Assembly: GCA_036785375.1 (NCBI GenBank) | Contig: JAWMAR010000009.1 | Coordinates: 9,424,001-9,488,000, forward strand | Direction of reading: 5' to 3' | DNA from: Leucoraja ocellata | Taxonomy: Eukaryota | DNA: 64,000 nt | Shown: one piece after another, positions 28,913 to 61,900 of the stretch | Layout of the letters: every line of letters begins with the position of its first letter | How positions within the stretch are numbered: the stretch's first letter is position 1 | Translations under genes and position numbers: made by a program | Notes under the pieces: generated by a model | The model's database searches: none | What the model was told of the DNA's origin: nothing | The model's input: the letters and a program-made list of their open reading frames with translations, nothing else

Positions 28913-28989
<77 letters not shown>

Positions 28990-34900: not shown

Positions 34901-37900
34901 TTCTTTATCGTGGATCTGTACATAAGTTCATAAGTGACAATAGACAATAGACAATAGGTGCAGGAGTAGGCCATTTGGCCCTTCGAGCCAGCACCGCCAT
35001 TCAATGTGATCATGGCTGATCATCCCCAATCAGTACCCCGTTCCTGCCTTCTCCCCATATCCCTTGACTCTGCTATATTTAAGAGCCCTATCTAGCTCTC
35101 TCTTGAAAGCATCCAGAGAACCTGCCTCCACCGCCCTCTGAGGCAGAGAATTCCACAGTGATTGGAGCAGATAGGCCATTCATCCCATCAAGACTACTCC
35201 GCCATTCAATCATGGCTGATCTATCTCTCCCTCCTAATCCCATTCTCCTGCCTTCTCCCCATAACCTCTGACAACCGTACAAATCAAAAATCTATCTATC
35301 TCTGCCTTAAATATATCCACTGATGGCCTCAACAGCCTTCTGTGGCAAAGAATTCCACAGCTGTACACTGGGGATGGCTCCATTGTAATCAAGTATTGTC
35401 TTTCTGCTATGGATAGCACACAACAAAAGCTTTTCCCTGTACCTCGGTACACTTGGCAATAAACTGAACTCAAACACTGCCAGTCAGGAGAGTGCAGGCA
35501 CAGTGGGGCTGGTTGTCTGCTCAAGATGTTTAGGAGATCCCCATGGGTTGTCTGACCAGTTCTGTTCCAAATCCTGCCAGGACTCGGCCAGAACCATGAC
35601 CCAAACCCCAGCACCAGGAGTGGATCAGCTTTACAGGGAGGAAGAAGGTCCAGAGGCAATTCTGGACATGGGGGCAGACTGCGGTTTCTGTGATCGCAGA
35701 CCAATGATCTCATGGGAAGGTCCATTCGTGCTGCACTGTTTGGGCATTCAAATGTAGCTTTGAAGAGTTGAAGAAAGGTACAGAAAGGATTGAAAGAGAT
35801 AAACAGCAACTAAATAATAATAGGAAGTAAATAACACACATAGTAGGAAGGAATTGCAGATGCTGGTTTATATCTAAGATAGGCACAAAATGCTGGAGTA
35901 ACTCAGCAGGTCAGATAGCATCTCTGGAGAAAAGGAAAAAGTGACATTTCAGGTCAAGGCCCTTCAGAATGAGTGCCTTCTACAACATAATCAGACTGAG
36001 AGAATACAAGAAGGTCTAAGGCAGGATTACAATGCATGTAGGTGAAGCTAAGACGTTATTTCAGCAAGGTTGTGTAGCTGTGGATAAAATCAAAGGAGAT
36101 AGCCATGTTATGGCAATTAAGAGCTGCTAAATGGCAAGAATGCGTTCTGACTATACCTGAACACAAAGTGCTTGTAAAAGAGAGGGGCGGGGAAAATGGA
36201 GGAGGGAGGATGCACTCAGTTAAGCTTGGACAGAATCTTTCTGCAATTAAGAAATAATAGATCTAAAAATACAATAAGAGAGACTATTCTAGTGGGAAAT
36301 ATATCATTGGATAAATATGCAGGGAAATTGCAGAGATGTACAAAAACAATAGACAATAGACAATAGGTGCTGGAGTAGGCCATTTGGCCCTTCGAGCCAG
36401 CACCACCATTCAATTTGATCATGGCTGATCATCCCCAATCAGTACCCCGTTCCTGCCTTCTCCCCATATCCCCTGACTCCGCTATTTTTAAGAGTCCTAT
36501 CTAGCTCTCTCTTGAAAGCATCCAGAGAACCTGCGTCCACCACCCTCTGAGGCAGAGAATTCCACAGACTCACCACTCTCTGTGAGAAAAAGTGTTTTCT
36601 CGTCTCCGTTCTAAATGGCTTACTCCTTATTCTTAAACTGTGGCCCCTGGTTCTGGACTTCCCCCCAACATCGGGAACATGTTTCCTGCCTCTAGCGTGT
36701 CCAAGCCCTTAACAATCTTATATGTTTCAATGAGATTCCCTCTCATCCTTCTAAACTCCAGGAGTTGTGATAGTGGAGACTGTGGAGATAGCCTGAGGAC
36801 CTTCTGAGCAAATGCATGCAGGATATGCAGGAAATGGTTGTGAGGGCTCCATCAACCGCACCAGAGGGGGAACCACAGTCCCTAAAGAAGGAGAACATTG
36901 CAGAGGTCCTAGAATGGAAAGCTTCATTGTGAGAACAGAGGTAAGGCGATGGAGAAACTGAAAGGCAGAGATGGCGTCCTTACAGGAGACTGGGTTGGTA
37001 CTGGAATCACTGCACTTTTTAATTACATGTTAATGATTAGGACTGCACATAATTTCTGAAATTGCAGATGGCAAAATCCTGGAGGCGTAGTAAACTGTGA
37101 AGATAGAAATAGACTTCAAGGAGATTTGGATATACTGGTGGAATGGGCGGATGGGTGCCAGATGACATTTAATGCTGACAAACATAAAGGCTAGGGTGAC
37201 AGAGATTAGGCAATGTAAATTGGAGGGCACAGTTGTACAAGGTGTATACGATCAGAGATCTGGGGGTGTGTAGAGTATACAGTATAGTCGGAGCAAGGCA
37301 GATAGATGTGCGAGGATTGGGGAAACTGGAGAAAGTGGTTAAAAAGCAAAAGGGATTCTAGGCAAAGATGTCATGATGAATCTTTATAAAATTCTAGGCA
37401 CGGTACATTAGGGAGGATATTAAGGCTTTGGAGGGGGTGCAGAAGGGATTTACGGAAACTATTGCGGGATTGAGGGATTCGGATTCTGTTGACAGACTGG
37501 AGCTGGGGTTAGAAACATAGAAACATAGAAATTAGGTGCAGGAGTAGGCCATTTGGCCCTTCGAGCCTGCACCGCCATTCAATATGATCATGGCTGATCA
37601 TCCAACTCAGTATCCCGTACCTGCCTTCTCTCCATACCCCCTGATCCCCTTAGCCACAAGGGCCACATCTAACTCCCTCTTAAATATAGCCAATGAACTG
37701 GCCTCAACTACCCTCTGTGGCAGAGAGTTCCAGAGATTCATCACTCCCTGTGTGAAAAAAGTTCTTCTCATCTCGGTTTTAAAGGATTTCCCCCTTATCC
37801 TTAAGCTGTGACCCCTTGTCCTGGACTTCCCTAACATCGGGAACAATCTTCCTGCATCTAGCCTGTCCAACCCCTTAAGAATTTTGTAAGTTTCTATAAG

Positions 37901-40900
37901 ATAAACCAAGTCTATCCAGTCTTTCTTCATAAGACAGTCCTGACATCCCAGGAATCAGTCTGGTGAACCGTCTCTGCACTCCCTCTATGGCAATAATGTC
38001 CTTCCTCAGATTTGGAGACCAAAACTTACGCAATACTCCAGGTGTGGTCTCACCAAGACCCTGTACAACTGCAGTAGAACTTCCCTGCTCCTATACTCAA
38101 ATCCTTTTGCAATGAAAGCTAACATACCATTCGCTTTCTTTACTGCCTGCTGCACCAGTTCTCCTTGGAACCGAAGAGACTGAGAGGAGGGAGGAGATCT
38201 GATAGTAGTTTTGGAAATCATGAGGAATGTAGTAGTCAGAGCAGATAGAGATAAACTGTGCTTACTGGCAAACGAGCAATGGACTGTGAGACACAGACAA
38301 TAGATGAGTGACAAAGGAACCGGAAGTGACACGGTGAGGTTAGAGCCTGCAGTCCACCTCCAGAGGGAGGAGTTGAGGTAGAGGGATGGCACAGTGGCGC
38401 AGCAGTAGAGTTGCTGCCTTACAGCGCCAGAGACCCCGGTTCGATCCTGACTGCGGGTGCTGTCCGCACTCGTGGGTTTTCCCCGGATGCTCGGTAGGGA
38501 TTTAGTGGTCAGTAGGGATTTGGTGGGCCAAAGGGCCTGTGTCCGTGCTGTATCTCTAAACTAAACTAAAGATTCCATGGCAGAATTTAAGAGGGAGCAG
38601 GATAAGGGCAGGAAGTGGCAGAGCTGGATATTTACACATACTCTGTGGGCTGAGTAGCGTGCTTTGGTGATCTTTCTGGCAGTCTGCATTCACTGTGTAT
38701 CTCCCACCACTGATGAGCTCCTGCTTTGGTTGCGAGTTTCTGGATGGAGGTGGTTGGGTCGGGGAGAGGTTGCTTTACCAAGAACAGCCAATCTTTCTGC
38801 AATACCCGCCCGCTGTCTGACGCAAACCACACAGGGGAGATACAACAATTCCGGGCCATGTGCTTACCTCGGGTGAGGGAAGCTCCCCCAGGACTTTATC
38901 ATCGACCGGAGTGGTGACCAACATGTTGCCGAGGATTCCCTTCAAATGCCGGGCCATGACCGCCTGCTGCTCCTTGCCACAGTGATTCTCCAGGGACAGG
39001 ATGACGGGATACGGAGAGACCTGCAGAGAGGTTAAGGGGATAGGCTTCACTCAGCTGCAGCAGCGTCCTGGTAAACAGACTACCGTTTGGCTAAAGCAGG
39101 TAACGGGAGTCACGGTGGCGCAGCGGTAGAGTTGTTACCGGGGGGGTTAAGAGCCAGAAACCCGGGTTCGATTCTGACTATGGGTGCTGTCTTTATGGTG
39201 TTTGCACAGTCTCCCTGTGACAGCGTCGGTTTTCTCCAGATGCTCCGGTTTCCTCCCACATCCCAAAGACGTGCAGGTTTGCAGGTTAATTGGCTTCTGT
39301 AAATTGTCCCTAATGCATAGTCTAGAACTAGAGTCAGTGCGGACTCAATTGGCCCTAGGGCCTATTTCCACACTGTGTTTCTAAACTAATCTAAATGTAC
39401 AATAACTGTGTTAACCATCAGCAGGTAATCATACACAGCAAGTTAACATGTTGCAGTGACCTTCAGTTCCTTCAGGAAGGGATTGCTCCCCAAATCAGCT
39501 CCTCCAGTAGGCCCGGCCTTGCACTGCAACCTAAAGTGGCAATATTTTGATACCTCCACTAGACTGGATTTATTATACTAGATCCATGCCTGATACACAG
39601 CAACAGCATGGAATGTGTCTGTACATCCAGGCAGTTCTGCTATTACTCGATAGTTGCATTTATAAGAAACTTTGAGTTATAGAAGATTGCTTTCTTAAAA
39701 CAACTGTGTCAATGGTGGATTGGGGTTTCAGGACTAGAGAGATTCAGGCTCGCAATAACAACGTTATTTTTCCTGAAGGATTTTCAAAAATGAAGGTCTT
39801 TTTAATAGGTTGCAGGCTAAAATACCAAAGGCTGTATGTCACATTGTTTAATAGAGTATCCTTGCTCAAGTGTCAATAGAAATGAAGACTTGTCAATTTT
39901 ATTGACGATAATGAGGCTAAAGTAGCAGCTGTGTTCTTTAGAGACAATGATGCCTTTGATTACCGTGGGGAGAACATTGAAACACTATTTTTTCGCTGGA
40001 CTTTTTGTTTTTAAAAAAAAACAGCATTTTTTCCATATCAATTTCCAAAGTATCTTTTTCAGTGGTTCTCTGGTTCCCGATCAAAATCATGTTGTAACCG
40101 ATTAGGCCCACATAATACAAATAGTGTTCCTAATCAATTCATCCCAGTATATCCAGTTTATATTATCGAAACACAATGAACTGCAGATGCTGGAATGTTT
40201 GAGCGAAATACAAAGTGCTGGTGTAATTCAGTGGGCCAGGGAGCATCAGTGGAGGGAATGAACAGATGACATTTTGGGCTGCGACCCTTCTTCAGAGTTA
40301 TGAGGACAGACATTGTAGCGGAACAACAGACAGGATTAGAAGCGGGGTCGAGTGTGCCAGGGATTCATTTGCTCTAGGGAAAGTGCACGCTGCTCTAAGA
40401 CATGGTCTCCATTGATTGACCTCAGCTACAGGGATGACCAAGGATGGCCCCATGTCAGAACAGTTGGACCCTCGGACTGCTATCTGGTCTCTGACAGTCA
40501 GTTACTGGGGACATTCAGTGTGGTCTTACCGTGAAGGCGTAATCCCTGATGGTTGTAATGACGTCCTTGAAGAGGATTTTGGAGGTGAGGGTGTATCCAT
40601 GGTAGATGATAGGCTCTCCATTCGGCCCCTCCCAGCAGTCCAACTCCACACAACGACAGCCCCTCAGAAGAGCTCTGGAAAACATTGGATGCCTGTCCGT
40701 TACATGCACTGAATTCACAGAACCACCTTTTGCTGCAATGTAGGTTTTCCGCATGATTGATTGGATGGCATTTCTGGCCTGTTCGAATACCCTGCGAAAC
40801 AAAGCTTTTCACCGTACCTTAGTACACGTGACAATGAACACTGGCATGGGCCAGTTGTGACAAATGGTCTGTTTCACTTGTACACTGTGGTTACCTGATG

Positions 40901-43900
40901 TATGCCTCGGTACTGCTTGGTCCTCCCAACTGGTCCTCCATCAGGTAGGTGTTATGGGAAGTTGAAATGAAGTAGTGGCTGAGTGGCTGGCTCATGTCCT
41001 GGTAGACCTTCTCATGGTCGGGGTTAAAAATGTTCCCTTCAGGAGACAGCATGTACATCATGAAGCCATCGAAGGTCAAGCCCTGGTTCAGTTTGCCTGC
41101 AGATGGGAAACAATTTCCAGGTTACTATGACTGAGGATGGCGTTCCAGTACAGCTGTTGCTGGGTGTGTTAGGAATCCAAATCCATCTTTTCAAGGGATT
41201 GAAACATTGTCAGCATATAATGAAAGTGTGCCCAGACATTGCAGTAACCTGTTCCATTCCTACCAGTCCTTGGTTTGGAAGCCCAAATGTGCAAGGTTCA
41301 GCAATGATGAGACTGGTAGGCTTAAGATTTAGAAGCACGGGGGATCTATGCACTAGGACTTCACCCAGTTTTGCATGCTCCATCCATATCACAACTGTGC
41401 AGTGATTATTGTAACTGTGCATGGTAACAATTCGTCCCTCTGGCCAATTTTCCATCTGATGGCACTCCTTCCCCTCTCCTTCCTCTCTGACTCAAGTCTA
41501 ATGGAAGGCAACTTAGAGCAAACACTCCATCCTTTTCAAACCAAGAATAAAAGACTCCTACCTTGGGCCAGCTCTCTGTCTCCTGTCATTCCTGCCTCCA
41601 CCCTCCCATTATCAAAAACACTTTTCCCAGTTCTTCCTCATTATCAACAGGAAATTGTCATGGAATTAAAATAAATGGACTTAGAAGCATAGAAACATAG
41701 GTGCAGGAATAGACCATTCAGCCCTTCGAGCCAGCACCGCCATCCAATATGATCATGGCTGGTCATCTAAAATCAGTACCCAGTTCCTGCTTTTTCTCCA
41801 TATCCCTTGATTCCTTTAGCCCTAAGACTTAAAGGGACAGGGTCAATGAGCAGTTTAACCTCCCATCTGTACTCAACATCTCAGCCCTACAGGAAAAGAT
41901 GAGCTAACGTGTAAAACAAGTCGAGCAGTGGCCTTCAACATTTGTCATACCGTTATCATAAAGTCCGTACTTCTGCATGATGTTCAAACAATTTTCTTCT
42001 GTAACTATCTCCTTCTGTTCTTTCAAGAAATGTTGCAGCTCGTCAGTGGTCAGCGTTTGTCCCTGGCCTGAGAACTGATGGAAGATTTGCTCCAACTCTG
42101 GACGCTGCATCAGTAACTTGCAGAACTCCTCGATCTCATGCTCTTCCAGTTTATTTGTTTTCGATTTGTCACATTGCTGAAAGAAGGTTTGCCCAGGTTT
42201 ACAGTGAGACATTCCTTGATCATCGTTAATTTTTTGCATATCTTTCATCCATATCTCTCTATATCACCGCCTACATCTCTTGTTTCCCTTTCCCCTGACT
42301 CTCAGTTTGAAGAACAGTCTAGACCTGAAACATCGCCTATAGGGAGGTTGCACGGCAGTCGCGTCACGAATCATGACCCATACTGTTGCCACGGAACGCC
42401 AACTGGAGTACACGCGATGAACTGCAGGTAAGCACTTACTGTTGTTTCCAGCGTAGCGCGCCTGTTAAAAACCACCGAAATGGTCAATTTTTGCGCTGTA
42501 AATAATTATGGAAATCGGGGTAAGCGTGAGAGATATTTATCTTACTTCAGAATTCGAAATGACGGAAGAGAGAAGCGGCAGCTGAGGGACAACAACAGCT
42601 AAAGTGCTTGGCGAACATTGGCCGTGCAGATATCAAGATTGAAAATATTGGCAATTATCGCATTTGCTCACTGCATTTCATCAACAGTGAGGCATTATTT
42701 GTGTTTTTTCTTGATTCCTTTGGTATCTAAAAAGTTTTAGAAGTGATAAATCTGGCTGTAAAATTCTAAAATCGCCCATGGTTCTCGTGGGTTTTTACGT
42801 ACAAATAGAAAATGCTTCTGAAGCAATTTCCCCGATTTCCATAATTATTTACAGCGCAAAAATTGACCATTTTGGCGGTTTTTAACAGGTACGAAAGTAC
42901 ACATTCCGTGTATTAACAGTATATGCAGGATGCTGCCATGTCCTCCACATGGATTGCGTTGACCCCTGCGTCACGCCCTTTGACCCGATGACCATATGTG
43001 CAACCCCCCCCCCCCCCTATTCCTTTTCCGTAGAGACCCTGCCTGACACGCTGAGTTACTCCAGCTTTTTGTGTCTATCGTTGGTTTAAACCAGCATCTG
43101 CAGTTCCTTCCTACACATATATTGTGAATGTTTCATTGGTACAAAGAAGGAGACTGGATAATCAATGATATGCCGTGAATTATTAACGCACACTAAGATA
43201 AAAAAGAAATCAGCCAGGGCTTCACCAACCAGCAGCCCGCCCCCTGATTATGAGTGGGCTACTACCACCTACTACATCCGTCACTGATGCCAGGCTGCCG
43301 TGTTTGTTGAGATGGCAATGTAACAAACAGCACAAGAAAAGCAGGGACTGGAGCATACAGGTGCACGTAGGCGAGTGAACATGCAGCACATCCAAAGTCA
43401 TCAGAAAGCAACGACACGCTGTCACCGCATTAGCAAGATGTTATTAAAAGCTGTTATTTAAAGCTTTTATCTATTCTCTCCCAGGACACCGGGGGTTGCT
43501 GGCTTAGCCGAAGCTTACTGCCCGCCCTCTGTGGCTCTTGAATTAAATGCTTTCATGGGATAAGAATCAACCACATTGCTGTCACATTTAGACCAGGCCG
43601 GCTAAAGGTGGGAGATCTCCGTGTAAAACGCACTTCAATATTTTCAACATTTGTTATTTAATTATTTTCCTGCTATAGTGGGAATTGAATTTATAGACTT
43701 GATCCCTGGACCAACCTGTTTACAAAAAACTGCACAAGAAAATTGTTTTCCTCATTTTTTTTTTTAAAGTGTTTGCGTTGAAGTGAAGCTGTAAATGCAC
43801 AGCCCGTGTCTCAGTGCTTGTGAACGGGAGAAAAATATGCCAGTGACCAGTTACTACAAGGGAGGCCCAGTCCCACAATTACTTTACTGATCCTCACCCC

Positions 43901-46900
43901 CACTTCCCAATGAAACACTATAGCCAGATAACAACCAAAAATGGGTGGAATCCAGCTTCCCGACGTGTCTCTCGGTAGTAGCACGGATTAGACCAGAAAA
44001 CCAGCAACATAAGCCTTGTGTGACTACCTTCCTATACCAGACAGAGGTCAAAGGGACAGGAACTGGCTTTAATCAGCACAAACAGATTAGTTAAACACTC
44101 ATAACATTTGCTCATAAATCCATCCCAGGGGATCGGTCAGTACCAGTAATCTCATCGTCATTTTATGCACAATGCAAAGTATTAAAAAAGCATTAAACAG
44201 AATATCACAAATGCCTGGTTTTCTAGCTCATTTAAAGGGACCCAAGGGCCATGTAGAGGTTGAGAGGTTAATTAGCTGCTAAATTGCCCCTGGTGTGTGG
44301 GTGAGGGGAAGAATCTGGGGGAGAATAAAATAGGATTAGTGATATATTATTACAAATGGGAGGTTGATGGTCGGCAGCATGGACATGGTGGGCCGAAAGG
44401 CCTTTTACTATGTGTATGTCACTGAGAAAATGTATCTGCAATCACATAAAGATAATAAATGTACATGGACTCGAGAAGTAAAGTGAAACCAAAAGATACT
44501 CACACTGGCAATTTAACAAAGAAGTGCATTTATTGAGTATTCAGTTTGAGGATTTACATCTAAAATTTTAATTTATTTAAAAATGGGTGACAGGAGAGTA
44601 ATTTGGAGACCTGAAACGTCGCCCATTCCTTCTCTCCAGAGGTGCTGCCTCACCCGCTGAGTTACTCCAGCATTTTGTGCCTACCTTCGATTTTACCAAC
44701 ATCTGCAGTTCTTTCTTAAACTAATTTGGAGTCCTAGCCCGGAACTAATGGAGCAAAATGACTTCTGAAGAAGGGTCTCGACCCAAACCATCACCCATTC
44801 CTTCTCTACAGTGATGCTGCCTGTCCCGCTGAGCTACTCCAGCATTTTGTGTCTACCTTCAAGATAACTTCAGCCATGTGTCTGTGGAATAATACCCAAG
44901 TGGGAGAAGAATTCACCTGTTCCATCAAAGTGCAAACTTCACTGAGCTTTTAGCCGTATCATAAGAGTTTCTTGATTTCTTGATAAGAGTTTCTTGGCAG
45001 CTTGCAGGCAAGGTACATTATTTACTTTGTAATCACTATTCCCTTGAAACATCAAGGTGTTGCATCCAAATCTACCATAATCCCGGGATAGGTCTCCTGG
45101 AATTCCCGCTGTGGACACGTCTTCCTTCCTTCCCCTGGGATGCACCCATGGATACTCTACTGCAAGGTCCAAGCTGCAAGGTCCAAGCTGCAAGGTCAGA
45201 AAATATACCTGCTGAACCTGCGCTGGGTGCACTGTGAGCCAGGTGCCTGGTTAAAGTGGTAGGCACCAACTCTAACTTGGATGGAGCAGGATGCGGGGTC
45301 TATCCTCTCATCCACCACTCCACCCTTGGGAACAGTCTCTCACCCCTTCCACTTTTGAAGGATATGCCTAGACGCTGGGGTTTACCCATTTCTGGAGCAT
45401 TAGAGGGAATTCCTCCTCCTTTATCCTACCACCTTAGCAAATACTCCCTCTTTGCCAACACTACCAGAAGATGGGAAAGTGCCAGCTCGGGTGTGCTCTG
45501 AACTTTAAGAACTGCTTCCCGGGGTCAAAGGTATGAGGAAAGATTGAATTGAATGACACCGCACCAAAACAGGCCGCTCGGCCCACCCCATCCGATGGCC
45601 CACCACGACCATCGATCGCAAGTTGTCACTAATTCTATGTTATCCCACTTTTGCACCCACTTCCTACACACTAGGGGACATTTCTTAGAATTAACCTACA
45701 AACACACACGTCTTTGGGGTGTGGGAGGAAGCAACCCGCGGGAAACAGGAAGAACATGCAAATTCCACACAGGCAGACATCTGCAGTGATTAGAAAATCT
45801 TGCCAGAAAGCATTTTTGAAGGTTACAGAGCAGTTGACACTCACTAGGACATCTGGACAGAAAGTCCATGCTTATTAGTGACTGGAGTCAGCTCACTCAC
45901 AGACGTGCCAAAAACAATGAGCACAGTAAAGTATAAAACAATGTGTTGGAGGAACAAGGCAGGAGAGAATTTGACTGACATTTTTGGGTCAGGACTTTCT
46001 TCAGACGAATATCAGTCTGAAATTTCATCTGTTCATTTCTCCTAACAGATTATGCCTGATCTACTCAATTCCTCCAGCACGTTGGTTTTACCTCAAGATT
46101 GCAGCATCTGCAGTCAGCAACTAAATGAGTATCAGCGCAAAGCAGTGGTAAAGGGGTCAGCCTGGGCTCAGTGAGATCTTCAAGTGCTGAGTCCAAGGCT
46201 GTCCAAGTCACACCTTTATGCCTATGTCCACTACAGTGCCATCTCTTAAACTTATATATGCTTGCTCCCTTAGGTAAATGTAACCCGTTCCATGCTGACC
46301 AATATTTATCATGCCATAGGAGCAGAATTACACCATTCGGCCCATCAAGTCTGTTCCACTGTTCAGTCATGGCTGATCTATTTTTTTTATCTCAACCCAA
46401 TTCTCTTGCCTTCTCACAGTAACATTTGACACCCTTACTAATCAAGAACATAGAAACATAGAAAATAGGTGCAGGAGTAGGCCATTCGGCCCTTCGAGCC
46501 TGCACCGCCATTCAATATGATCATGGCTGATCATCCAACTCAGTATCCTGTACCTGCCTTCTCTCCATACCCCCTGATCCCTTTAGCCACAAGGGCCACA
46601 TCTTATTCCCTCTTAAATATAGCCAATGAACTGGCCTCAACTACCTTCTGTGACAGAGAATTTCAGAGATTCACCACTCGTTGTGTGAACCTAATCAAGA
46701 ATGCTTTAAAAATACCCAATGGCCTCCACAGTCATCGGTGGCAATGCATTCCACAGATTCACTACCCTCTGGCTAAAGAAATTCCTCCTCATCTCACAAC
46801 ACACAGTACACAATCCAATTTATCTCCAATCTAAAGGTACGCCCTTTTATTCTGAGGCTGTGCCCTCTGGTCCTAGACTCTCCCACTACAGGAATCATCC

Positions 46901-49900
46901 TTTCCACATACACTCTATCTAAGCCTTTCATTGCCAGGTAGGTTTCAATGAGATTCCACCTCATCCTTCTAAACTCTAGCATGTACAAGCCCAGAGTTTA
47001 ATGAATATTGCTTCCAAATACATGCCTGGGCTTCATCTTCTGGATGTTCATGTGGATGTTTGCTGTGCACATACTGACTGCCTTGCTTACTACGTAGGAG
47101 TGAGAAATACATGACTATTTCCAAGTGGTCCTGACACAGCAAAAGCATTGTAGGTGGACAAGTATTTCTTTCTTCCATGCTAACTAAACATATCAGGTAG
47201 ACCCATTAAAATCCTAGCTTATTATTCAAATCCCCCATTCCATCTCATCACCGTTGGTCACCCAATGGTCCAATATGTACCCAAACGTACAGCTAGGTCC
47301 CCCGCCCCCTTCATGGGCTCCAATGTCCCCAGTAACATTAGCAATGGCGTGCTTTCACTTTCAAAAGCCTTACCTGAAAGAGGGAGTTGACGTAATCATC
47401 ATTTACTTTCAGGTTGATCATTTTGAGCATATTTTTCATTTCCTTAAAACTGATCTTGTTGTCGTTGTTTTTATCAGCCTTCTGCAGATGTTGATGGATC
47501 AAGGTAACAGCAGTTAAGGCAATAACTAAACAGGCAGTGCTTATACATGAAACTATTTAGAAATATCACACGCAACATGGTCGCAGATGCAACATCATTG
47601 CATGGCTTGAAGCGCAGGAATGATCTCTGTACATCTGTTGGCATAATGAAACGGCTTGGGGTTAAAGATAAACATTATACAGAAACCCCTTCACAATCTT
47701 GTTGGCCCAAACCCCAGCTTCAGTTCTTGCCTCTCATCCCAGGTCACCGCATTCACTGGTAGAGTATTCCTGTAACTCCATCATCAGGTTTGCCGACGAC
47801 ACCGCTGTTGTAGAGCCGTATTACTGATGGGACGAGTCAGAGTGTAGAAGTGAGATCGACCGATTGACCAAATGGTGCCAGCACAATAACCTGGCTCTCA
47901 ACATCGGCAAAACCAAGGATTGGATTGTGGACTTTGGAAGGGGTAGGATGGAGACCCACAATCCCGTGGAAAGGGTCAAGAACTTCAAATTCCTGGGGGT
48001 GCGTATTTCTGAAGATCTCTCCTGGTCCCAGCACACTGATGTAATTATAAAGAAAGCACATCAGCACCTCTGCTTCCTGAGAAGATTACGGAGAATTGGT
48101 TTGTCAAGGAGGACTCTCTAACTTCTACAGGTGCACAGTAGAAAGCATGCTGACTGGTTGTATCGTGGCTTGGTTCAGTAACTTCAGCATCCAGGAGCGG
48201 AAAAGAATGCAAAAAGTTGTAAACACTGCCCAGGCCATCACCGGCTCTGACCTCCCCACCATCGAGGGGATCTATCGCAGTCGCTGCCTCAAAAAGGCTG
48301 GCAGCATCATCAAGGACCCACATCATCCTGGCCACACAGTCATCTCTCCGTTGCCATCAGGCCTGAATCTGCAACATCCAGGTTCAGGAACAGCTTCTTC
48401 CCCACAGCCATCAGACTATTAAACACAACTTCAAACAAACTCTGAGCTATAACAACCTATTGCACTTTATCTGTTTATTTATGTTTGTGTATATATATAT
48501 TCTATGGTATATGGTCACACTGTTTTGATCTGTTCTGTATATATGCCTAAAATATTCTGTTGTGCTGCAGCAAGCAAGAATTTCATTGTCCTATCAGGGA
48601 CACATGACAATAAACTCTCTTGACGTGACGACCTTTACTGATATGAATTCCATTCCTTTTTGACAAATATTTTAGTCCTTGCCTTTGATAGACGTTGCTG
48701 GTGAAATAAATCATGTTCCATTACAATCCTGATATGTTGACTTACCAAAGTAACGTTTTATTATTAAATATTTGCCAAATGTTTAGAGATATGAAAATCT
48801 ATTTTACATTATGTATATTCATGTGAATAAGGAATTCCACTGCACCTGGTGAATATGGCAATAACCTAATCAGGATCTAAAATCACCAATTTTTAAGCCA
48901 TCTTTGTTGTTTAACTTGTTATGTCATTTCTCAGTTCCCTGAGAATGACTCTCGGATTTCTCTGTTCTATTTTGATGCCCTTCTGATGGTCTGGTTCTGT
49001 TGGAATTAGTCTCTGATGTCCCACTATTATTTCTCCCAAGGCAGCTTCCAAATAACTAACTGACCCAGATATAATTTTTGCACAATTTCAAAAGACACTT
49101 CCATGTCTTTGACTCCACATAATGGAATAGATCGGGTAGAAGCACAGAATCTCTTGCCCAGAGTCGCGGAATCGAGGACCAGGGGACAAGGGTTCAAGGT
49201 GAAGGGGAAAAGATTTTATAGGAATCCAATGGGGTCACTTTTTCACACAGAGGGTGGTGGGTGTATGGAACAAGCTGCCAGAGGAGGTAATTGAGGCTGG
49301 GACTATCCCATCGTTTAAGAAACAGTTAGACAGGTACATGGATAGGACAGGTTTGGACCAAGCGCAGGCAAGTGGGACTCGTGTGGGACTTGGGACATTG
49401 TTGGCCGGTGTGGGCAAGTTGGGCCGAAGGGCCTGTTTCCACAATGTATCACTCTATGACTATAATTTTACATTATGGTCTCTTTGGATGAACAGCAGAT
49501 TACAACAGTCTGTTAATGTTACCTTCTTTAGTCAGGACCTCTGCTTCAAAGCTCCATAATGCAGCTCCAAATGATAACTGGTGCTAACTAGTGGCAGCTG
49601 GCCTAGGCTCTGAACCTAGCATTGAAGGTCGAACATTTGCACAATAGCCGGAACTAGATGGTCAGCACAATTAACACCACTGCCACATCCCAAGGAGCCT
49701 TGCTCATCCAGAGCCTCGGATGGGGTTTGCATGTTCTCCATGTTCACTGTATTTTTACTAATACAAATACAGAATAGTCTGCAGGTGTCTTTGTGGAGCG
49801 AGGAAGCAGAGTCAGGAACATTACTGGGGGATAAATTCAATGCATCAGTAAATCATTCTGCCGGCATCAACCCAGAATAATTATCCCATGTGTTCTTGTT

Positions 49901-52900
49901 AATCACCCTGCACTGAGCGGATATTCAGTGGAGGAGGGGGTGGAGAGCAGGCAGTGTTACATCTGCTCCCTGTGCTTTGTGCCCTCCAATACCTGCTTCT
50001 GTTGAGTTCAGGATGTAATACATAATGTGTGATGGGTGTTATTACCCCAACTCCTTCTGCACAGCAGTTATTTCCCCCCTGTAGCTTTACTCTCTGCTGC
50101 TTCTGGGAGACCTTAAGGGGTAAAATATATTTGTGGGCGACCTGCACTGAGACAGAAACATAGAAGCATAGAAAAAAGGGTGGCCGTTTGGCCCTTCGAG
50201 CCAGCATTGTGATCATGGCTGATCATCCACAATCAGTAACCCGTGCCTGCCTTCTACCCGTATCCCTTGATTCAGCTAGCCCCTAGAGCTCTCTTTTAAA
50301 TTCAGCCCGTGAATTAGCCTCCACTGCCTTCTGTGGCAGAGAATGCCACAAATTCACAACTCTTTGGGTGAAAAAGTATTTTCTCATCTCAGTTTTACAG
50401 TTTTTCATAGACTGTGACCCCCGGTTATTTTTATTTTTTTCATGGCAACTTCACCATCTACGTTATTGGAAACACTTGGGCTATCTTTAATCAGACTTTA
50501 CTGGACTTTATCTTGCATTAAACGTTATTCACTTTATCCTGTATCTGTACACATTGGACGGGTGGAATGGAATCATGTATAGACTTTCAGCCAACTGGTT
50601 TGTACGCAACAGAAGCTTTTCACTATACCTCTGTACTGGGTTGTTGAATTAGTCTATATTGGCTACCAAACCAGACTATAGCTTGACTGTCAGAGTTGAG
50701 CAGCATGTCAGTAACAGAGAGATTAGTGTCACCAGACCCTATTGCATATTCACATTGCCGCTACCCAGTCTAACGCCCAGTCAGGTCTGTTCCCCTTGTG
50801 GTCAAAGGATATTGTTCGATTTTGTCCTGCTGGCTCATGGTTGCTACTCTTCCGGTGAGCTTCTTCAGCCCCCGCACCCAGCACCTCCCTTCCTCCTCTG
50901 AGGCCGCCACCAGGTCCAGGCTGCTCCGGCTGCCCACGAACACGATGGTGAAGCAACGTTTCTGCAAGAAGCTGCCGCCGTGTTTGGTCATCACGTCCGA
51001 CTGGTGACCCTCCTGGATGTCCTGGATGTCCATCACCGAGACTGAAACATGGGGCGGAGAATTAGCAGCCGGACAACGTTTGCAAACCAGCTGGGTCATG
51101 GGACAACTCTGTGGGCTGGGGGGAGGGGGAGGGAAGAGTCTGTGGTGAAAACCAGGGAGGCTCCGGATGGGAGCTGACGGTGGGTATGAGGGTGGAGAGC
51201 TGGTGTGTGAGGTTGAGCCAGCGTTGAGTTAAGCAGCGGCTGCAATTGACATGGGTCAGGAGGGCACCCTTCAAATTACACTGAAGCCTTGGACATTCAG
51301 CCTGACGAATCCTTGCTATCTACACCACATTTGTATCATAGCATGAACAACACCAACGCATGGACATTTGGACACCTCCGGGCACTGGTGCTTAGGATGC
51401 AGCGAGGACCCAAATGAAAAAGAATGGACTGGACTATGGAACATGCGGCGACCTCAGGCTGTGCTTCACAGACTGTCTTCTGAGCAGACAGTGTTGAACG
51501 GTGTACGTCAGTGTTGTAATGGGGGGCAGAAATTCTCTGCCTAATCCTCCCCACCTCTCATTTTCCACATCCTACAAGATACCCTTTCAAACCTATATCT
51601 ATGCCCAGAGCATTCAGTGACCTCTCTTACAAGAGCACCTGCTCTTCTGTTTTGGGACAGAGTATTATTCACCAGTTCGAAGCCCGTTTAAAAGCATTGT
51701 AGTGCCTGAGGGTTTTTTTGAGTTCATAAACTTTATATGACACATTTAGTATATTGTGTCAAAAATAATTCCATAAAACAATTCCTAGCCAGTTACCATA
51801 GAATTAAATGTATTAAATAGTTACTGGAAGTGGGGACCTCCTCCTGAGAACCTCCTAGTCACACACCAGACTTGGAAAGGTATGACTAGTCCTTCAGTGG
51901 GTCTAAATCAGGGAACTCCTTGCCCAGCAACACTGTGGCAACACCTTCCCCAGAGGACTTCACCGGATCACTCCTCAAGGGCAATGAGAATAATGTAGAA
52001 CAATGTACTGTGATATAGTTTGATGGCCCATGAAATGTCAGGAATTGAGGTCAGGTGATAATAGACAATAGATAATAGGTGCAAGAGTCGGCCATTTGGT
52101 CCTTTGAGCCAGCACCGCCATTCAATGTGATCATGGCTGATCATCCTCAATCAGTACCCCGTTCTTGCCTTCTCCCCATATCCCCTGACTCCGCTATTTT
52201 TAAGAGCCCTATCTAGCTCTCTCTTGAAAGCATCCGGAGAACCTGCCTCCACCGCCCTCTGAGGCAGAGAATTCCACAGACTCCCCACTCTCTGTGAGAA
52301 AAAATGTTTTCTCGTCTCCGTTCTAAATGGCTTACTCTTATTCTTAAAGTGTGGCGCCTGGTTCTGGACTCCCCCAACATCGGGAACATGTTTCGTGCCT
52401 CTAGCGCGTCCAAAACCTTAACCAGCTTATATGTTTCAATGGAATGCCCTCTCATCCTTCTAAAATCCAGAGTGTACAAGCCCAGCTGCTCCATTCTCTC
52501 AGCATATGACAGTCCCGCCATCCCGGGAATTAACCTTGTAAACCTACGCTGCACTCCCTCAATAGCAAGAATGTCCTTCCTCAAATTAGCCTTCAATTGC
52601 CTGCATTTATCGGTCGTCAATTCCCTAGCAAAGCCTACATGGTGTCCCTGCAGTCTCCCACTGCACTTAGTGTTCCCACAGCACGACACCCCACTGCACT
52701 GACACCACAATGTTCCCACTACACTAACCACTGTGTTCCCACTGGATTAAGTGTTCCCACTGGTTTAACAGTGTTCCCATCCACTGCACTAACACCACTG
52801 TGTTCCCACTGCACTACACTGTGTTCCCACTGCTCTAACAACAGTGCTCCCACAATGTGAATGGTGCAGTGCTCCCAATGTCTTCACAGTGCCGATACTA

Positions 52901-55900
52901 CGGTGCTTGAAGACGATACTCACACGTAGGTGGCTTATTCCTGGACTCGTACCAGATTGAGAGCCCGTCCTCCTGCAGCTTCATCTGGCGATCCTTCTTC
53001 CACTTACTGGACTTTACTTTTCGCAACTTGCCGCCTCTCAGCATGTACTTCACATCATCATCTTCATGTAACCCTGGGAAAGGCAGTAGGACATAGTTCC
53101 CTCAACAATCACAATAAGATGGAAGGTAGACTTACTTCTCCGGTTTACCCCAGGCGCCATATGCCAGTGAGGTCAGAGAAAGGTTACAGCTAAAGGAGAC
53201 CATTCAGCCCAGTGTGTGCATGCTGGCTCTCTCCCAGAGGAATTCATTAATTGCAACCCACCCCCTTCTCTGCCACCGTGTATATTTCTCCACACCATAT
53301 TTGTATCCAATTCCCTCTTGAAGGTCGCAGTGGTGCAGCGGTAGAGTTGCTGCCTTACAGCGAATGCAGCGCTGGAGACCCAGATTTGATCCTGACTACG
53401 GGTGCTGTCTGTATGGAGTTTGTACGTTCTCCCCGTGACGTGCGTGGGTTTTCTCCGAGATCTTCGGTTTCCTCCCACACTCCAAAGACGTGCAGGTTTG
53501 TAAATTAATTGGTTTGGTAAATATAAACATTGTCCCTGGTGGGTATAGGATAGTGTTAATGTGCGGGATCGCTGGTCGGCACGGACCCGAAAGGGCCTGT
53601 TCCGTGCTGTATCTCTAAACTAAACTAAACTAATGCAACCTCTGGTACTGACCTCTCCTACGCCAAAGACATATTCCTGAGCTTCCAATCTACCTTGTTA
53701 TGGTCCATGCATTTTTTATCTGCACTTTCCCTGAAGCTGTAGCATGATATGCTGCACTCTATTCCTTATCTCTTTTAACCCTCATGTACAGAATGATCCA
53801 CATGGATAGCATACACGACAACATTTTTCACTGCATCTCGGTATACGTGTCAAGACTTGGTAAGGCGTGTGTACGGTGTTGGTTAGCTGCTATAGGAACG
53901 ATGTCATTACACTGGAAAGGGTACAATAAAGATTTACAAACATGTTACGGTTCGGGAGTTTTGAGACATAATGAAAGCTTGGATTGGCTGGTTCAATTTT
54001 CCTGGAAGATAGGAGGTTGAGGAAAGACATAATACAATCTTTTCTCGGGTAAACATGTCAGAAAAACTAGAGGGCTTAGGTTTAAGGTGAGAGGAGAAAG
54101 ATTTAAAAGGGAACCAAGTGATGCCTTTTCACACTGAGGTTGAAGCAGAGGTCGGAACAAGCTGCCTGGGGAAGTACAATTACAACATTTAGAAGGATAG
54201 GAAAGGTTTGGTGGTATATGGGCCAGGCATAGGCAAATTGAATTATTTTAAGCAATTTGGTCAGCATGGATGAGTTGGACAGAAGGGCCTGTTTCTTTGC
54301 TGTATAGCTCTATACTGCATCTTATGAAAAGCCTTCTGAAGACAACTGCATTCTTCCCATCAACTCTTTTCATTATCTAAGTGTATATCGCACACTAAAC
54401 ATGGCAGATGAGCTCATGCAGAGTTAATTATTACTAGCACAAGGTTTAAAGGAAGGTTGACTGGCAGCTGAACATTCCTGATTACAGGGAAGGGCAATGC
54501 TAATTAAAGAAGCTTACACACCCATGAGAGAGGATGATACCTCAGCAAGATCATCAAATGAGGCTGCAACACATATCATAGAGCTGTGCAGCACAGAACA
54601 GGCCCTTCAGCCCACCATGTCCATGCCAAGGTTTTTGCCTATGTACACTAATCCTATTTGCCCACTGGGCCTTAAAATAGCAATGAAACTTCTGGTGGAA
54701 TCTGTAGTCCCGCATTCTCAGGGAGAATCACTAAGACAGTAAGGGTGCAAAGTTTTAACTACCCTAGCAGTTAGACAGGTACATGGATAGTACAGGTTTG
54801 GAGGGATATGGACCAAATGCTGGCAGGTGGGACTAATGTAGCTGGGGCGTTGTCAGCCAGTGTGGGCAAGTTGGGCTGAAGGATCTGTTTCCACACTGTA
54901 TCACCCTTTGCCTCTATGACGAGCATTAATGATCAGTTTAAAGGACCAAGTGAACACAGGACACCCAAACCTCATTCTCTGATGTGTGAAATGATGCATT
55001 TTAGTAAGTTAAACCAGAGTAGGACTTACACAGTAAGATGACATGGTCCAGGAAAATGATTTGATTGGAGACTCTGAGGGGTACAAGTACATAGTTCCAT
55101 GGAAGTATGTACTTGTTGGATGATCAACCATGATCATATTGAATGGCGGTGCAGGCTCGAAGGGCCGAATGGCCTACTCCTGCACCGAGTTTCTATGTTT
55201 CTATGAAGTGGTGACACAGATTAACAGGGTGGTGAAGAATATGTTTGACATGCACCTCATCATCAGTCAAGGCATCGAGTGCATGAGTTAGGACATCATG
55301 TTGCAAGTCCTATTGGTTGTTGAGCAATGTTGGTGAGATCACACTTGGAGTATCGTGTGCAGCGCTGGTCACGCAGTTGTAGGAAAGATGTCATTAAACT
55401 GGAAAATTCCTGATGCAGGGCTTTGATCCAATATCTCAGCCATTCCTTTGCCTCCACAGATGCTGCTTGACCCTCTTCAGCGGTTTGTTTTTTGCTCCGG
55501 AGGATGTGCAATCCTGAATGTAATTTTACGGAATGAAGCTGGGCAGATGGTCAGAGCATCGTGGGGAGTGTAGGTTTGTGACGTGATCATAAACTGGCTT
55601 CTTTTAGAAAAGGATAGAGTGCAGGATCTGAACAGGAACTAACCAACTTATTCAACTGGGGAGTGATTTAGAAGACCAGTAAAATGGTCTTGAAACAATT
55701 TTAAGAAGGGAAATCAAGAAGTTCAGGGTAAATATGTCTGCACAAAGGAAAAGGGGGTAAAGGATGACAGGAGGGTGGGGAAGCAGCCAACTGGGGAAGT
55801 TTATGTGAGACACTGGGAGCAGCATAAAGCCTGGGACAATATCAAAAGTGTAGTTGTCAACAAAGGGAGGGAATGAACAAGATTATCAGCAAATCAAAAC

Positions 55901-58900
55901 AAAGAGCTAAAGATAAGAATAGAAAATGCTAAGAATTTAGCGGGTGGGACAGCAAATGTAGAAAATGAAACAGAGGGAAGTTCATATCAATGGCCTTTTC
56001 TCAAAAATAGGCAAGGTTTGAAAACAGGTATTCAGTTACCAAGAAGAGGAATGGATTGTGGATAAAAGCACTCATAGGGTGGAGTCCAAGAAAAACTGGA
56101 TAAACAGGGTGATGCTGGCTGAGGGAGGCTTGATACTCACAAATGATCTCTCTGGGGAAAGTGTAATTAGAAGGAAAAGAACACAAAAAGAGAATGACAA
56201 ACCAAGGTGCTGGAACTGTGGACAATTCACCATTGAATCCCCAGGGCTTACTGTGTCTGTTGCCGTTCTCAACCTTACTTTACATCTTGCTGGAGTAGGG
56301 TAAAAACCAGAGGGATTGGGATGGAGAATTAAATATGACAGGCTACTGGGAGCTGTGGGAACTCATTGTAGACTAAAGAGAGCCCGTTCTGCAAAGTGAT
56401 AATCTCATTGCATTTGGTTACTTCAATGTAGACTAGAGGAAACTACATGACGAGAACCATCTGCATAGGAAGAAACTTCAGACACTTGTTTATACCAAAG
56501 ATAGACACAAAATGCTGGAGTAACTCAGTGGGTCAGGCAGCATCTCTGGAGAAAAAGAATAGGTGGCGTTTCAGGACGAACCCTTCTTCAGACTGAAAGA
56601 TCTATTTTTGAAACCTATCCCAATGTTTCTCTTTAATGCTACACGGTGTAACGGCTGGAGATATAGATGACAACATTTCTTGTCCAATATTCCTTTGAAC
56701 CTTAACTTGCTCGGATTCCATCTTCTGGCAAGATGTAACTTGGTGGCAATGATTTATCCAGGCTCCATGCTTTCTGGACAATTGCCTTGCTACAATGAAG
56801 CAATTGGTTGTGAAGACTTCAGACTGCAGGAATGAGACAAATGCCTCACCCACACACAATCCATTCTACATAATCCATGATCTTCATCCCCTTCGATCTC
56901 TCATTTTTACCAACAAGAAACCTATAAAACACAGATGTCTTCAAGGCTCCTCTCAGGAAGCAGCAACACCAGTTTACAACTGACCTGCAGACTGATGGCC
57001 CCCACGTTGATTGTGAGGGTTTCGCAGCCAAACCCTATTTACAGCCTCACACACTGCAGCAATTGAACAAGGCTTTCTCCAGGGGTTGAAGCCCACAGAT
57101 GCACAGCCCTGGAAACTGTGCGACTGACAGGCCTGGGAGCAGTCTTGACATCCCACAACGACGTTTAGCAACTACTTGCATATTTACAATGCAGTTATTT
57201 AGGATGCTCGGCACTGCATTTCAGTCTGTGTCTGCCCCTTATCCACTGTGGGTCAGTGATCCAGAGAGCACAATAAGCACAATTCTAATTCCACAATGTA
57301 CTGTGTAAACACTTATGACCTTGTCCGTGATCAGACTCACAGCCACACACAACTCCCACTAACGGCAGAATCACTGAAGGAAGGGGGGCAAGGCATGTGA
57401 CACATCACTTTGTAGCACCCTAACGAAGATGCATTCTAAGTCTTGTACACTCAATCAGCCTCAGGCCTGTGGCCCTTTCCCCCACCACTTCTACTTCTAC
57501 TTCCTATAGGCTCGAGTGGCACTCATCTCCTTAAAGCATCAGTGAGCCCTGCTACAGGTACTGTTATAACTACCAGAGGGCATTCACTGCATTAGCCTGA
57601 GAGGCAAATCAGGCAGGGAAGCCTGCTTCAATACCTATTGCACAACCATTCAACGCCCTGGCTAAACCCCCGGCCTCAAAACGGTTTAAACGCATTGCAT
57701 CAGCGACCACGCTGTGGTTGAACAAGTTCAGCAGCCAAAGTTATTTTTGCAGCTAGAAGATAGACACAAAAATGCTGGAGTCATTCAATGTGTCATGCAG
57801 GGTATGGGCAGGCCTGAAGAATGGTCCTGACCTGAAACGTCACCCATCCTTTTTCTCCCGAGTTGCTGCCTGACCAGTTGAATGACTCCAGCACTTTATG
57901 TCTATCATCGGTATAAACCAGTTCCTTCGTACACTCTTTGTGCAACTATTCGCTCCTACGTAAATCACTGCTAATCCACCTGATTTAGTGCTAACAAGGA
58001 AGTTGGACTTTAGCTTCCTTGTTTTTAATTTCAAACGCTCATAAACATTGCCAAACAACTGCAACTATGCTGAACCCCCCCCCCCCCCCCCAGAAATTCA
58101 ATCTCATTATTTTCTCCATTACTATTTTCTACTTGTATTCACTCTGATAAAATTCATCTCCTTAGTATTTTTTCATTTTCCTTTTCGGCTGCTGAATGTG
58201 ATGCCGACGTCCATTATTGAGGGGGATAGACAGAGTGAATGAACAATGTTTTACCCAGAGTAGGAGAATCAAGAACCAGAGCACATAATGTGTAGGAAGG
58301 AACTGCAGATGCTGGTTTACACTGAAGATCGACGCAACATGCTGGAGTAACTGAGCAGGACAGGCAGCATCTCTGGAGAGATGGAACACGGGACGTTTCG
58401 GGTCCAGACACTTCTTCAGACTTCAGAGACTGAAGAAGGGTCTCAACCCGAAACGTCACCCATTCCTTCTATCCAGAGATGCTGCCTGTCCCACTGAGTT
58501 ACTCCAACATTTTATGTTTATCTACCAGAGGACATAAGTTTAAGGTGAGAGGAGAAAGATTGGAACATGAGGGGGACAACTTTTTCACACAGAGGGTGGT
58601 AGGTATATGGAATGAGCTGCCAATGGAGGTAGTTAGGCAGATGATATAACAGCAATTAAGAGATATATGGACAGGGACATGGATAGAAGATGTTTACAGA
58701 GATGTGGGTGAATTGCGGACAGGTGGGACTAGCGTTAATGGGGTATCTTTGTTGGCATTGGCAAGTTGGGCCAAAGGCACTGCTTCTGTGTTGTCTGACT
58801 CTTTGACTCTGTTAATCTCCTTTGCCTGCATGTGATCCATATCCCCCCACACCTTACTTAGCTACTTGCCTTAATGCCATTATCGCAGCCGCCTGCACCA

Positions 58901-61900
58901 TCCCCTTGCCTACGTGCTCTAGGCACCCACCTCTCACTGGGTGAAAAAACATCCCACACATCTCTTTTAAATGTTGCCCCTCCCACCTTAAAGAGACGTG
59001 CCCTCTCATTCTTGACATTTCCATGCTGGGAATAAGGTTCTGACTGTTCACCCTTTCTATGCCTCTCATAATCTTATATACTTCTATCAGGTCTCCCCTC
59101 AGCCTCTGACGTTCCAGAGAAAACTATCCAAGTCTGGCCAACCTCTCCATATGGGAAACTTCCTCTAACCCAGGCATCATTCTGGTAAACCTCTGCCACA
59201 CCCTTCACATCTATGCTGTAATGGGGAGACCAGAATTACACACAATACTCCTAAATGCAGGCCTGTACAGCTGCAACAGGAGTTCCTGATTTTTATACTC
59301 AGTGCCCTGACCAATGAAGGGAAGCATACCATACATAGAAACATAGAAAATGGGTGCAGGAGTAGGCTATTCGGCCCTTCGAGTCTGCACCGCCGTTCAA
59401 TATGACCACACATCTTCTTTACCAATCTATTTACTTACGTTGCCACTTTCACTGAGCTATAGATTTAGATCCCAAGTCCCCACTCTACTGCTCTGGCCAT
59501 TAACTGTATGCTTTCCGCATATAGTGGATCGGATAGGTTTGGAGGGATATAGACCAAACGCAGGCAGGTGGGACGTGTGTAGATGGTGCGTGTTGGTCGG
59601 CGTGGGCAGATTGGGCAGTGGGGCCTATTTCCATGCTGTATGACTATTCAACCTCCCAAAGTGAAACACCTCACTCTTGCTCGGAATAAACTCCATCTGC
59701 CATTTACTGCCATTACCATTGACATGTCCGTCAACAACCTTCCCTGTTTTCTGTTGTTCCTTATAAGTGTTGTGAGTTGTAAGCTTATTTCTCTTCCTTG
59801 TTACTATCTCTGCCCACTTTGTCTCTTTGTCATCAGCATCACTCCCCTGCGTTCCCTTACTCCACCTCTTGTATTTATACCATCTTTCCACAGTTTCCTC
59901 GCCCTCGCTGGCCTCTCTCTGCAATGCTGCTAATCCTTCCTTTCCACACCTTTGTCCTTCTAATCTGAAATATTAATCTCTCCATCTAGATGGGTTAGGG
60001 CAGTGCAGAGGTGCAGCAGGTAGTGCCACTACCTCACTGATTCGGGGAGCCTGGTTCAACCCTACCTTTGGTGCTATCTATCAGGAGTTTGCATGTTCTC
60101 CGTCTGAGTTTACTCGGAGTGCTTCTGTTTGCTCTCCCAGCTTCTGAAGATGGGCGGGCCAGTAGGTATTAGACTGCCTATGGTGCATGATTGCCCCTGG
60201 TGTATGATTGCTAGAATCTAGGGGGAGTTGAGAATAGGGTTGCCAACTTTCTCACTCCCAAATAAGGGACAAAAGGTCAAAATAAGGGACAAATTCCCGA
60301 CGGCAATTCGTTGACCGACTCGGCTGTGGCTGGGTGAATGATGAGTTGGCCCGGGTCTGGACTGCACACAAAGCCCAGCCGGTGGGTCAGCCGAGGAGTT
60401 TTGGCCCGGGTGATGTCGCACGCAAAGCCCGGCACCCCATCCAACTCAGGAACCGAGGATTGGCTATGAGAAGGAGGGGTGGTGGTGTCGGCGGTAAGCG
60501 AAGATCCAAAGGTCAGACAGCTGGCCGGGCTGCCAACCGACGGGGCCACGGGCGAGGAGCTGCTGCTGCACTCCATGGGCTGCACTACGTCGGGACGGGT
60601 GAGGCGGGGCCGGACGCGGCGCTCCGACCCGACAGCCCCCTCCACCCGAGTAGTAACAGTCAAATACGGGACGTGGGCGGTCCCGTATAGGACAAAACCG
60701 ATTTAGTCCAAGAAACAGAATGTCCCGGCTAATACGGGACAGTTGGCAACTCTAGTTGAGAGGAATGTGGGAAGAATAAATAGGGACACAATACACTATG
60801 ATCTTGAGCAAGAAGGCTGGAAGAACCCTTCTTCAGATCAGTCTAAAGGATCCCGACCCAAAACGTTATCTGTTCATTTCTTCCACAGATGCTGCCTGAC
60901 CCCTGTTTTTGTTATTGTTGCTCGAGAATAAAATGGGTTAGGGGGGGATTAGTGGAAGGCCGGCTGTTACACAGTGAACATAATGCCTGCTTTCCATGCT
61001 GCATCTCTCTATGACTCTATCTTTTTTTTTACAAATCGCATCTGAGTCGCTTCCCGCTGTTCACGAAGAACCCATCCAGCCCTCTCCGGACAGTTCCATC
61101 CTTGCTCTCTCTATCTCTCTCCGCTGGCTGTCTCCCTCACTACCTGCTGGGATTTCCGTCTCAAATCTCTAATGTTAATGTCCTCTCGGCGATAGCCTTT
61201 TTAGAGATGGTACACAAAAATGCTGGAGAAACTCAGCGGGTGCAGCAGCAGCATCTGGGCCCATCTCCTTCGCTCCATAGACGCTGCTGCACCCGCTGAG
61301 TTTCTCCAGCATTTTTGACTACCTTCGATTTTCCAGCATCTGCAGTTCCTTCTTAAAGCATTTTTAAAGATTGTGTGTTTTATTTCTCTTCTCTCCGCAA
61401 CCCTCGCCCTCCAGACAGGGTTGTGAAGACGGGATACTGTGCCCGTGCTGAACCCGAGCCGAGTGGTGACAGACTCACAACACAACTCACAACTCACGAC
61501 TCACAACTCGGCTCACAACACCCGCGGCGGCGGAGCTGAATAACCGTCACCTTGTTCCTGCGCCGTTGTTTTCGGGTCGGCTTTTAGGTTTACTGTTTTT
61601 TAAGAAGGAACTGCAGATGCTGGAAGATCGAAGGTAGACAAAAGTGCTGGAGAAACTTAGCGAGTGCAGTAGCATCTATGGAGCGAGGGAAATAGGCAAC
61701 GTTTCGGAACGAAACGTTGCCTATTTCCTTCGCTCCATAGATGCTGCTGCACCTGCTGAGTTTCTCCAGCACCGTTTGTCCCCCTACACCGCGGAACAGC
61801 GAGAAGCTTTTTGCATTACACGCTTTCCGATCAAATCAGATGATACCATAAACACAATCAAAACCAAACTCAAAAACATGGGAAGACACAGAGTGCTGGA

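Follow-up and report, generated by a model that had tools for sequence, protein, structure and literature searches.

How the PH domain is joined to the EF hands in a skate PLCD3 gene is the question raised by a 64-kb stretch of the Leucoraja ocellata genome (contig JAWMAR010000009.1, positions 9,424,001 to 9,488,000; 64,000 nucleotides, hereafter the window). The two domains are encoded by exons 3 and 4 of a minus-strand gene, here called PLCD3 copy A, and the exons are separated by an interval that begins with AT and ends with AC. An earlier note, made from the letters of the window, had read this interval as an AT-AC intron of the minor spliceosome. With high confidence, the present analysis gives the same answer: intron 3 of this intact gene is of the AT-AC type, is cut at 50812/47504, is likely removed by the minor spliceosome, and likely descends from an ancestor of the PLC-beta, PLC-delta, PLC-eta and PLC-zeta genes.

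The signals stand where a U12-type intron carries them (Table 1). Read along the minus strand, the last base of exon 3 is 50813 and ATATCCTTTG begins the intron at 50812; at the other end CCTTAAC (47519-47513) is followed by 9 nt ending in AC, and exon 4 starts at 47503. The candidate branch A lies at -11 or -12, the canonical U12 distance. The join is in phase 2, rebuilds a split His codon and leaves the frame open. Taken singly, the motifs are at chance level: RTATCCTTT has one match in the window, the intron 3 donor itself, against 1.52 expected by chance, and CCTTRAY has 34 against 43 expected. Their placement, however, is not chance: RTATCCTT is found at a fraction of 4.7e-5 of positions and CCTTRAY 7-20 nt upstream at 0.0037, and both coincide with exon ends set by protein homology. 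Intron 3 alone among the 14 introns of copy A has a U12 donor, and the donors of most others are of the GTAAG/GTGAG type. A CCTTAAC motif also occurs near the AG of intron 7 (39037-39031, minus strand), whose donor is an ordinary GTAAGA; this branch-like motif is probably a chance occurrence.

The position of the junction was examined by enumerating all GT-AG, GC-AG and AT-AC pairs with donors at 50940-50701 and acceptors at 47700-47401. Seventy-five joins keep the frame without a stop, and 21 of these are GT-AG. The statement in the earlier note that no GT-AG join is in frame is therefore literally false; what holds is that none of the 21 produces the homologue sequence, namely a 119-aa segment present in all seven reference proteins. 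The AT-AC join has the top score against each of the three homologue references shown (530, 431 and 612), whereas the best GT-AG join reaches 492, 397 and 574 and adds 20 residues. The GT-AG, GC-AG and other AT-AC joins were rejected on their lower scores against shark and skate homologues. In 35 of 39 vertebrate PLCD3 proteins the H-W/L-I junction aligns without a gap, the other four having been missed by the search pattern.

Spliced sequence was found in one place. Four of the 24 listed sequencing runs were aligned, over the region 47340-51080; none of the runs containing the stretch is recorded as RNA, a result that says nothing about expression. The contigs of run X1, from a related organism, include one record of 1,146 letters in which 47374-47503 occupies letters 434-563 and 50813-51041 letters 564-792, with nine differences in 359 letters (one in exon 4, eight in exon 3). 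The inner ends of the two blocks are the proposed splice sites and cannot be shifted, and the outer ends are exon borders. In size, the leftover 433 letters match exons 5-6 (428 nt), and the leftover 354 match exons 1-2 (238 nt) together with a leader. The record is a spliced form, either an mRNA or a copy of one. In the other runs, exon 4 is covered about 2-3 times in X24 and not at all in X23, while exon 3 has depth without exon 4 in X23 and X6; this exon 3 depth may come from the second PLCD3 copy of the genome (copy B, below), whose exon 3 is 84% identical.

Coordinates, signals, frame and the X1 contig agree on an AT-AC intron at 47504..50812 between the PH and EF-hand exons, as the earlier note had placed it. 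Both the U11-type donor and the CCTTAAC branch site near the terminal AC, which it had put about 10 nt from the end, are present, the latter 9 nt away. The exact 50813/47503 junction stands on the X1 contig, on the best score among the 75 joins and on the homologous proteins. The check that had been proposed, a search for spliced sequence joining 50813 to 47503, was answered in part: the join is exact in the X1 contig, and it is not among the junctions listed for the raw RNA runs X23 and X24.

The gene itself is intact. Its spliced model was guided by the little-skate RefSeq protein XP_055513073.1, to which it is identical at 753 of 755 residues, and a pseudogene was ruled out, as the 755 codons contain no internal stop. 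By Pfam, a single intact frame carries PH, EF, X, Y and C2 domains; the PH exon matches the PH structure of rat PLC-delta1 (1mai) with an E value of 2.6e-12, and a thorny-skate protein that bears the name PLCD3 contains its sequence without a difference. All named entries within the best 120 of 4,064 protein matches are PLCD3, PLCD3-like or generic PLC. Judged by its closest named proteins, the gene is PLCD3; its domain architecture and the match to the little-skate protein bear out the name that had been given to it. The junction aligns with what we take to be His143 of rat PLC-delta1 (1djg, chain-offset numbering), just beyond the PH domain, where the first EF helix begins.

Three RNA components of the machinery that would remove such an intron are encoded in the same genome, where matches above the Rfam cut-offs number two for U11, two for U12 and 46 for U6atac. 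In paper pairings, the best U11 covers donor positions +3 to +9 and U6atac +4 to +9; at the branch site of intron 3, U12 can pair so as to leave one bulged A at -11 or -12. The U12-type AT-AC class proposed earlier is upheld by the donor, the branch site, true AT and AC ends and these complementary U11, U12 and U6atac genes. All 46 scored U6atac candidates lie above the cut-off, pointing to numerous U6atac-like copies in the genome. The best U11 gene (L023:1501-1511) has the 5' end AAAAGGGTTT, which permits pairing with the donor A at +3; human U11 presumably has C at the corresponding position.

In the proposed mechanism, the U11/U12 particle would recognise both signals together, U11 on ATATCCTTT and U12 on CCTTAAC, and pairing with U12 would bulge an A 11-12 nt upstream of the AC. 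U6atac would then displace U11 at the donor, and two splicing steps would join exon 3 (PH) with exon 4 (first EF hand) via the split His codon. The ordinary product would be the full enzyme.

Table 1. Features of PLCD3 copy A and related loci. Coordinates are window positions unless a contig is named.
Feature	Position	Strand	Remarks or basis
PLCD3 copy A intron 3	47504..50812	-	3,309 nt, phase 2, AT-AC; excised exactly in run X1 contig record 1
U12-type 5' splice site ATATCCTTT	50804..50812	-	Paper pairing with U11 and U6atac of the same genome
U12-type branch site CCTTAAC	47513..47519	-	Predicted branch A at 47514 or 47515
3' splice site AC	47504..47505	-	Sequence, X1 contig, gene model
Exon 3, second half of PH domain and linker	50813..51041	-	229 nt; 1mai match; X1 contig and gene-model borders
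Exon 4, first EF hand	47374..47503	-	130 nt; X1 contig, gene model, domain match
In-frame TAG inside intron 3	50770..50772	-	41 nt from donor; read-through frame of 169 aa
Three high-copy interspersed repeat blocks in intron 3	47840..50714 (about 47840-48714, 49090-49464, 50090-50714)		Read-depth table
PLCD3 copy A coding span	25006..62526	-	15 exons, 755 aa; 13 GT-AG introns and 1 AT-AC intron
Lys equivalent to Arg549	Exon 11, 31218-31102	-	Alignment to 1djg
PLCD3 copy B	G000:C9:8587132-8641831	+	15 exons, 760 aa, intact
Same-codon U12-type intron, PLCD3 copy B	G000:C9		AT-AC, 720 nt
Same-codon U12-type intron, other PLC-delta gene, two copies	G000:C18:1998498; C18:2097923	+; -	GT-AG, 6,995 and 8,003 nt
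Same-codon U12-type intron, presumed PLC-eta-like gene (L018)	G000:C23 near 3877125		GT-AG, 1,824 nt

Two other ways of removing the interval deserve attention. The major spliceosome might use nearby GT-AG or GC-AG sites, the U12 motifs being vestigial. The 21 GT-AG joins and further GC-AG joins are in frame, and the GC-AG join 50834/47526 even retains the 119-aa segment; against the sawshark homologue, however, the AT-AC join scores 530 while no GT-AG join exceeds 492 and no GC-AG join 488, the alternative donors poorly resemble the GTAAG/GTGAG type of most copy A introns, and the X1 contig uses the AT-AC ends. This explanation is very improbable. Alternatively, the interval might be an AT-AC intron of the U2 type, as in sodium-channel genes, since the ends AT and AC by themselves do not decide which spliceosome acts (PMC2831892). 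The likeness to the sodium-channel introns is in the AT-AC ends. Their donors have G at +5 (PMC2831892), whereas in the skate donor both +5 and +6 are C and the intron has a U12 donor as well as a U12 branch site with canonical spacing; a U2-type intron is extremely improbable. Several points weigh against the preferred account, removal of an ancestral AT-AC intron by the minor spliceosome. Nucleotide support for the junction is a single contig from a single run, of type 'RNA? (probably DNA)', on a related organism. For the raw RNA runs X23 and X24, none of the junctions listed spans 50813/47503, 170 joints lying outside the listing; these runs display neither such a junction nor a retention estimate because the repeats of intron 3 filled the tables. 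That the minor rather than the major spliceosome removes the intron is likely, on established splicing biology. The position of the corresponding human intron is deduced from its CCA flank together with Asp-His in the human protein rather than from human genome sequence.

If intron 3 were kept, the frame would run into the stop listed in Table 1; the TAG at 50772-50770 and the 169-aa length given in the earlier note were recomputed and are correct. Unspliced transcripts would most likely be kept and degraded in the nucleus or be sent to nonsense-mediated decay, the stop lying 41 nt into the intron with 11 junctions downstream. A regulated switch would have another outcome: slow splicing or intronic polyadenylation would yield a stable 169-aa PH-only protein competing for PIP2/IP3. 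The shark equivalent of the short product still scores as a whole PH domain, ATTAAA at +322 and AATAAA at +378 are the first poly(A)-like hexamers of intron 3, and RefSeq has two models of the great white shark, of 163 and 164 aa, that continue into this donor and then end. These models are, however, equally explained by gene prediction broken at an AT-AC junction; no full-length great white copy A is found among the best 120 of 4,064 matches, and a partial catshark draft (P0018, 130 aa) stops at the same place, yet the newer catshark model P0036 is full length. The hexamers fall within a high-copy repeat block (50090-50714). PLCD3/Plcd3 is absent from the retention and alternative-splicing tables of Olthof 2019 (PMC6717393), according to which 467 of 722 mouse minor introns are without retention, and retained minor introns show about 2-fold nuclear enrichment and are exosome targets according to PMC4066798. 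A regulated switch is improbable, and the PIP2/IP3 sponge and rate-limiting role suggested earlier gain no support, PLCD3 being missing from those tables.

The great white and catshark short models are probably broken at the AT-AC junction. The expectation that gene finders would mis-model it fits the two great white RefSeq models and one catshark draft that run into the donor and end, and the present result draws attention to a junction where some shark gene predictions go wrong. The last residues of these copy A models (great white P0006 and P0019, catshark P0018) imply that the donor starts in the same way in sharks. In two Mobula species, RefSeq isoforms of 560 aa (P0029, P0031) skip exons 3-5, 585 nt in frame; the minor intron is thereby bypassed, and the isoforms lack one half of the PH domain along with most of the EF hands.

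The second PLCD3 gene of this genome, copy B, lies about 870 kb from copy A on the opposite strand and is identical to XP_032891099.1 at 752 of 760 residues. Its intron 3 is also AT-AC and measures 720 nt, with the donor ATATCTTTT, which has T at +6, and the branch site TTTCCTTAC. Six proteins of 759-761 aa from contigs of 2.7-2.9 kb cluster with copy B, and the one inspected has the spliced junction. The two copies share the same minor intron with different donor and branch sequences, and they form a natural pair for asking whether minor-intron strength sets expression.

Each of the 10 shark and ray species used for trees has both copies. The trees have 29 rows (both copies from these 10 species and from this genome, plus a single chimaera and six bony vertebrates; other matches were omitted), and their exon partitions were picked after inspection of the data, so that they serve as illustration and not as a test. 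In the tree from the end of exon 3 and exons 4, 5, 10 and 11, copy A forms a clade (0.999), adjoined by the chimaera (0.988), and copy B another (0.977). In the tree from the start of exon 3 and exons 6-8 and 13-15, the A and B copies of a species are sisters in seven of 10 species, and not in Narcine and the skates. In the DNA of this genome, fourfold-degenerate sites differ between A and B at 63 of 215 positions, unevenly over the exons (chi-square 48.3, 14 degrees of freedom; none of 20,000 permutations was as uneven): differences are low in exons 3, 7 and 8 (1/24, 2/20 and 0/21) and high in exons 2, 5 and 11 (8/13, 7/12 and 9/13). A run of 147 nt over exons 7-8 is identical, similarity extends 26-47 nt into some intron flanks, and the similar tract of exon 3 stops ahead of the final 20 codons and the donor.

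The simplest reading of this uneven similarity is exon-wise gene conversion, which is likely, with selection on silent sites as the alternative. A duplication of PLCD3 with partial gene conversion is, overall, the probable history. A literature search with little coverage of subscription journals found no report of PLCD3 duplication or gene conversion in sharks and rays.

Copy A is the more derived of the two. Its active-site residues were compared by alignment to 1djg at H311, N312, E341, D343, H356, E390, K438, K440, S522, R549 and Y551 of rat PLC-delta1. The first six belong to the active site of that enzyme. The last five are listed in PMC12195575, according to which Arg549 contacts the 4'/5' phosphates. 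In the sequence alignment, copy A is identical at all positions compared except R549, which is Lys. The residue is Lys in 19 of 20 copy A proteins (the remaining one unmatched) and in the chimaera protein; it is Arg in 14 of 14 copy B proteins and in 86 of 92 bony-vertebrate matches, the other six being unmatched by the pattern and none of them Lys. This conserved Arg-to-Lys change may hint at an altered substrate preference of copy A. A bolder scenario, in which the copies swap sequence exon by exon and copy A combines a retuned active site with an AT-AC intron that switches between full enzyme and PH-only PIP2/IP3 decoy, is improbable as a whole.

Around the two genes, exons of an N-myristoyltransferase (NMT, NMT_C) lie on the plus strand of the window at 1249-1473 and 13023-13202, tail to tail with PLCD3, an arrangement that we take to be shared by human NMT1-PLCD3. 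ACBP and HEXIM genes lie on the same contig as copy B, about 3.6-3.7 Mb away.

The junction in copy A is already encoded, without difference, by the skate RefSeq PLCD3-like models XP_055513073.1, XP_032891061.1 and XP_078281096.1, and the intron has relatives within the genome. Intron 3 has U12-type counterparts at the same codon in four further PLC loci (Table 1), one of them a gene on contig C23 that we take to be PLC-eta-like. The C23 intron is GT-AG, but PMC6717393 assigns human and mouse PLCH1/2 to the AT subtype; a subtype switch is possible. The two PLC-delta copies on C18 are near-identical, inverted and 100 kb apart, and are either a recent duplication or an assembly duplicate.

The supplement of Olthof 2019 (PMC6717393, MIDB) lists a minor intron in human and mouse PLCD3 with the donor CCA|ATATCCTGC and lengths of 447 and 517 nt, the human one at chr17:45120455-45120901. 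The same source gives one minor intron per listed gene of the PI-PLC family in human and mouse, with GT donors in PLCD1, PLCD4 and PLCB1-4 and AT in PLCH1, PLCH2 and PLCZ1, and a review (PMC6865273) describes the phospholipase C family as rich in minor introns (60% of genes). PLC terms are absent from the supplements of PMC6865273, and none of the main texts found by literature search is about the AT-AC intron of PLCD3, the catalogue entry sitting in a supplement. The catalogued human intron likely lies at the same codon as intron 3, since human PLCD3 has Asp-His at the junction and the CCA flank agrees with codons for these two residues. Since the intron is catalogued in human and mouse PLCD3 and introns at the same codon occur at four more loci, intron 3 is old and the finding is already known: it is a genuine, ancestral, catalogued minor intron. 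The view that it is ancestral rather than new, with a U12 intron at this site in PLC-delta genes, is sustained by the Olthof 2019 catalogue and by the four same-codon loci. What is extended is the range of the catalogued PLCD3 intron, to a cartilaginous fish; if the positions are the same, the AT-AC state would go back to the jawed-vertebrate ancestor.

Compared with human and mouse PLCD3, the skate gene has the same AT-type U12 donor after a CA flank, and the D/E/H-H-W/L-I residues align without a gap. The skate intron is longer (3,309 against 447 and 517 nt) because of repeat insertions, and its signals are nearer the consensus (ATATCCTTT and CCTTAAC, against ATATCCTGC and CCTGAGC). Copy A, one of two chondrichthyan copies, has Leu where human and mouse PLCD3 have Trp after the junction. 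Within the PLC family, the subtype differs by paralog, GT in some and AT in others, whereas the position is shared at the four further skate loci.

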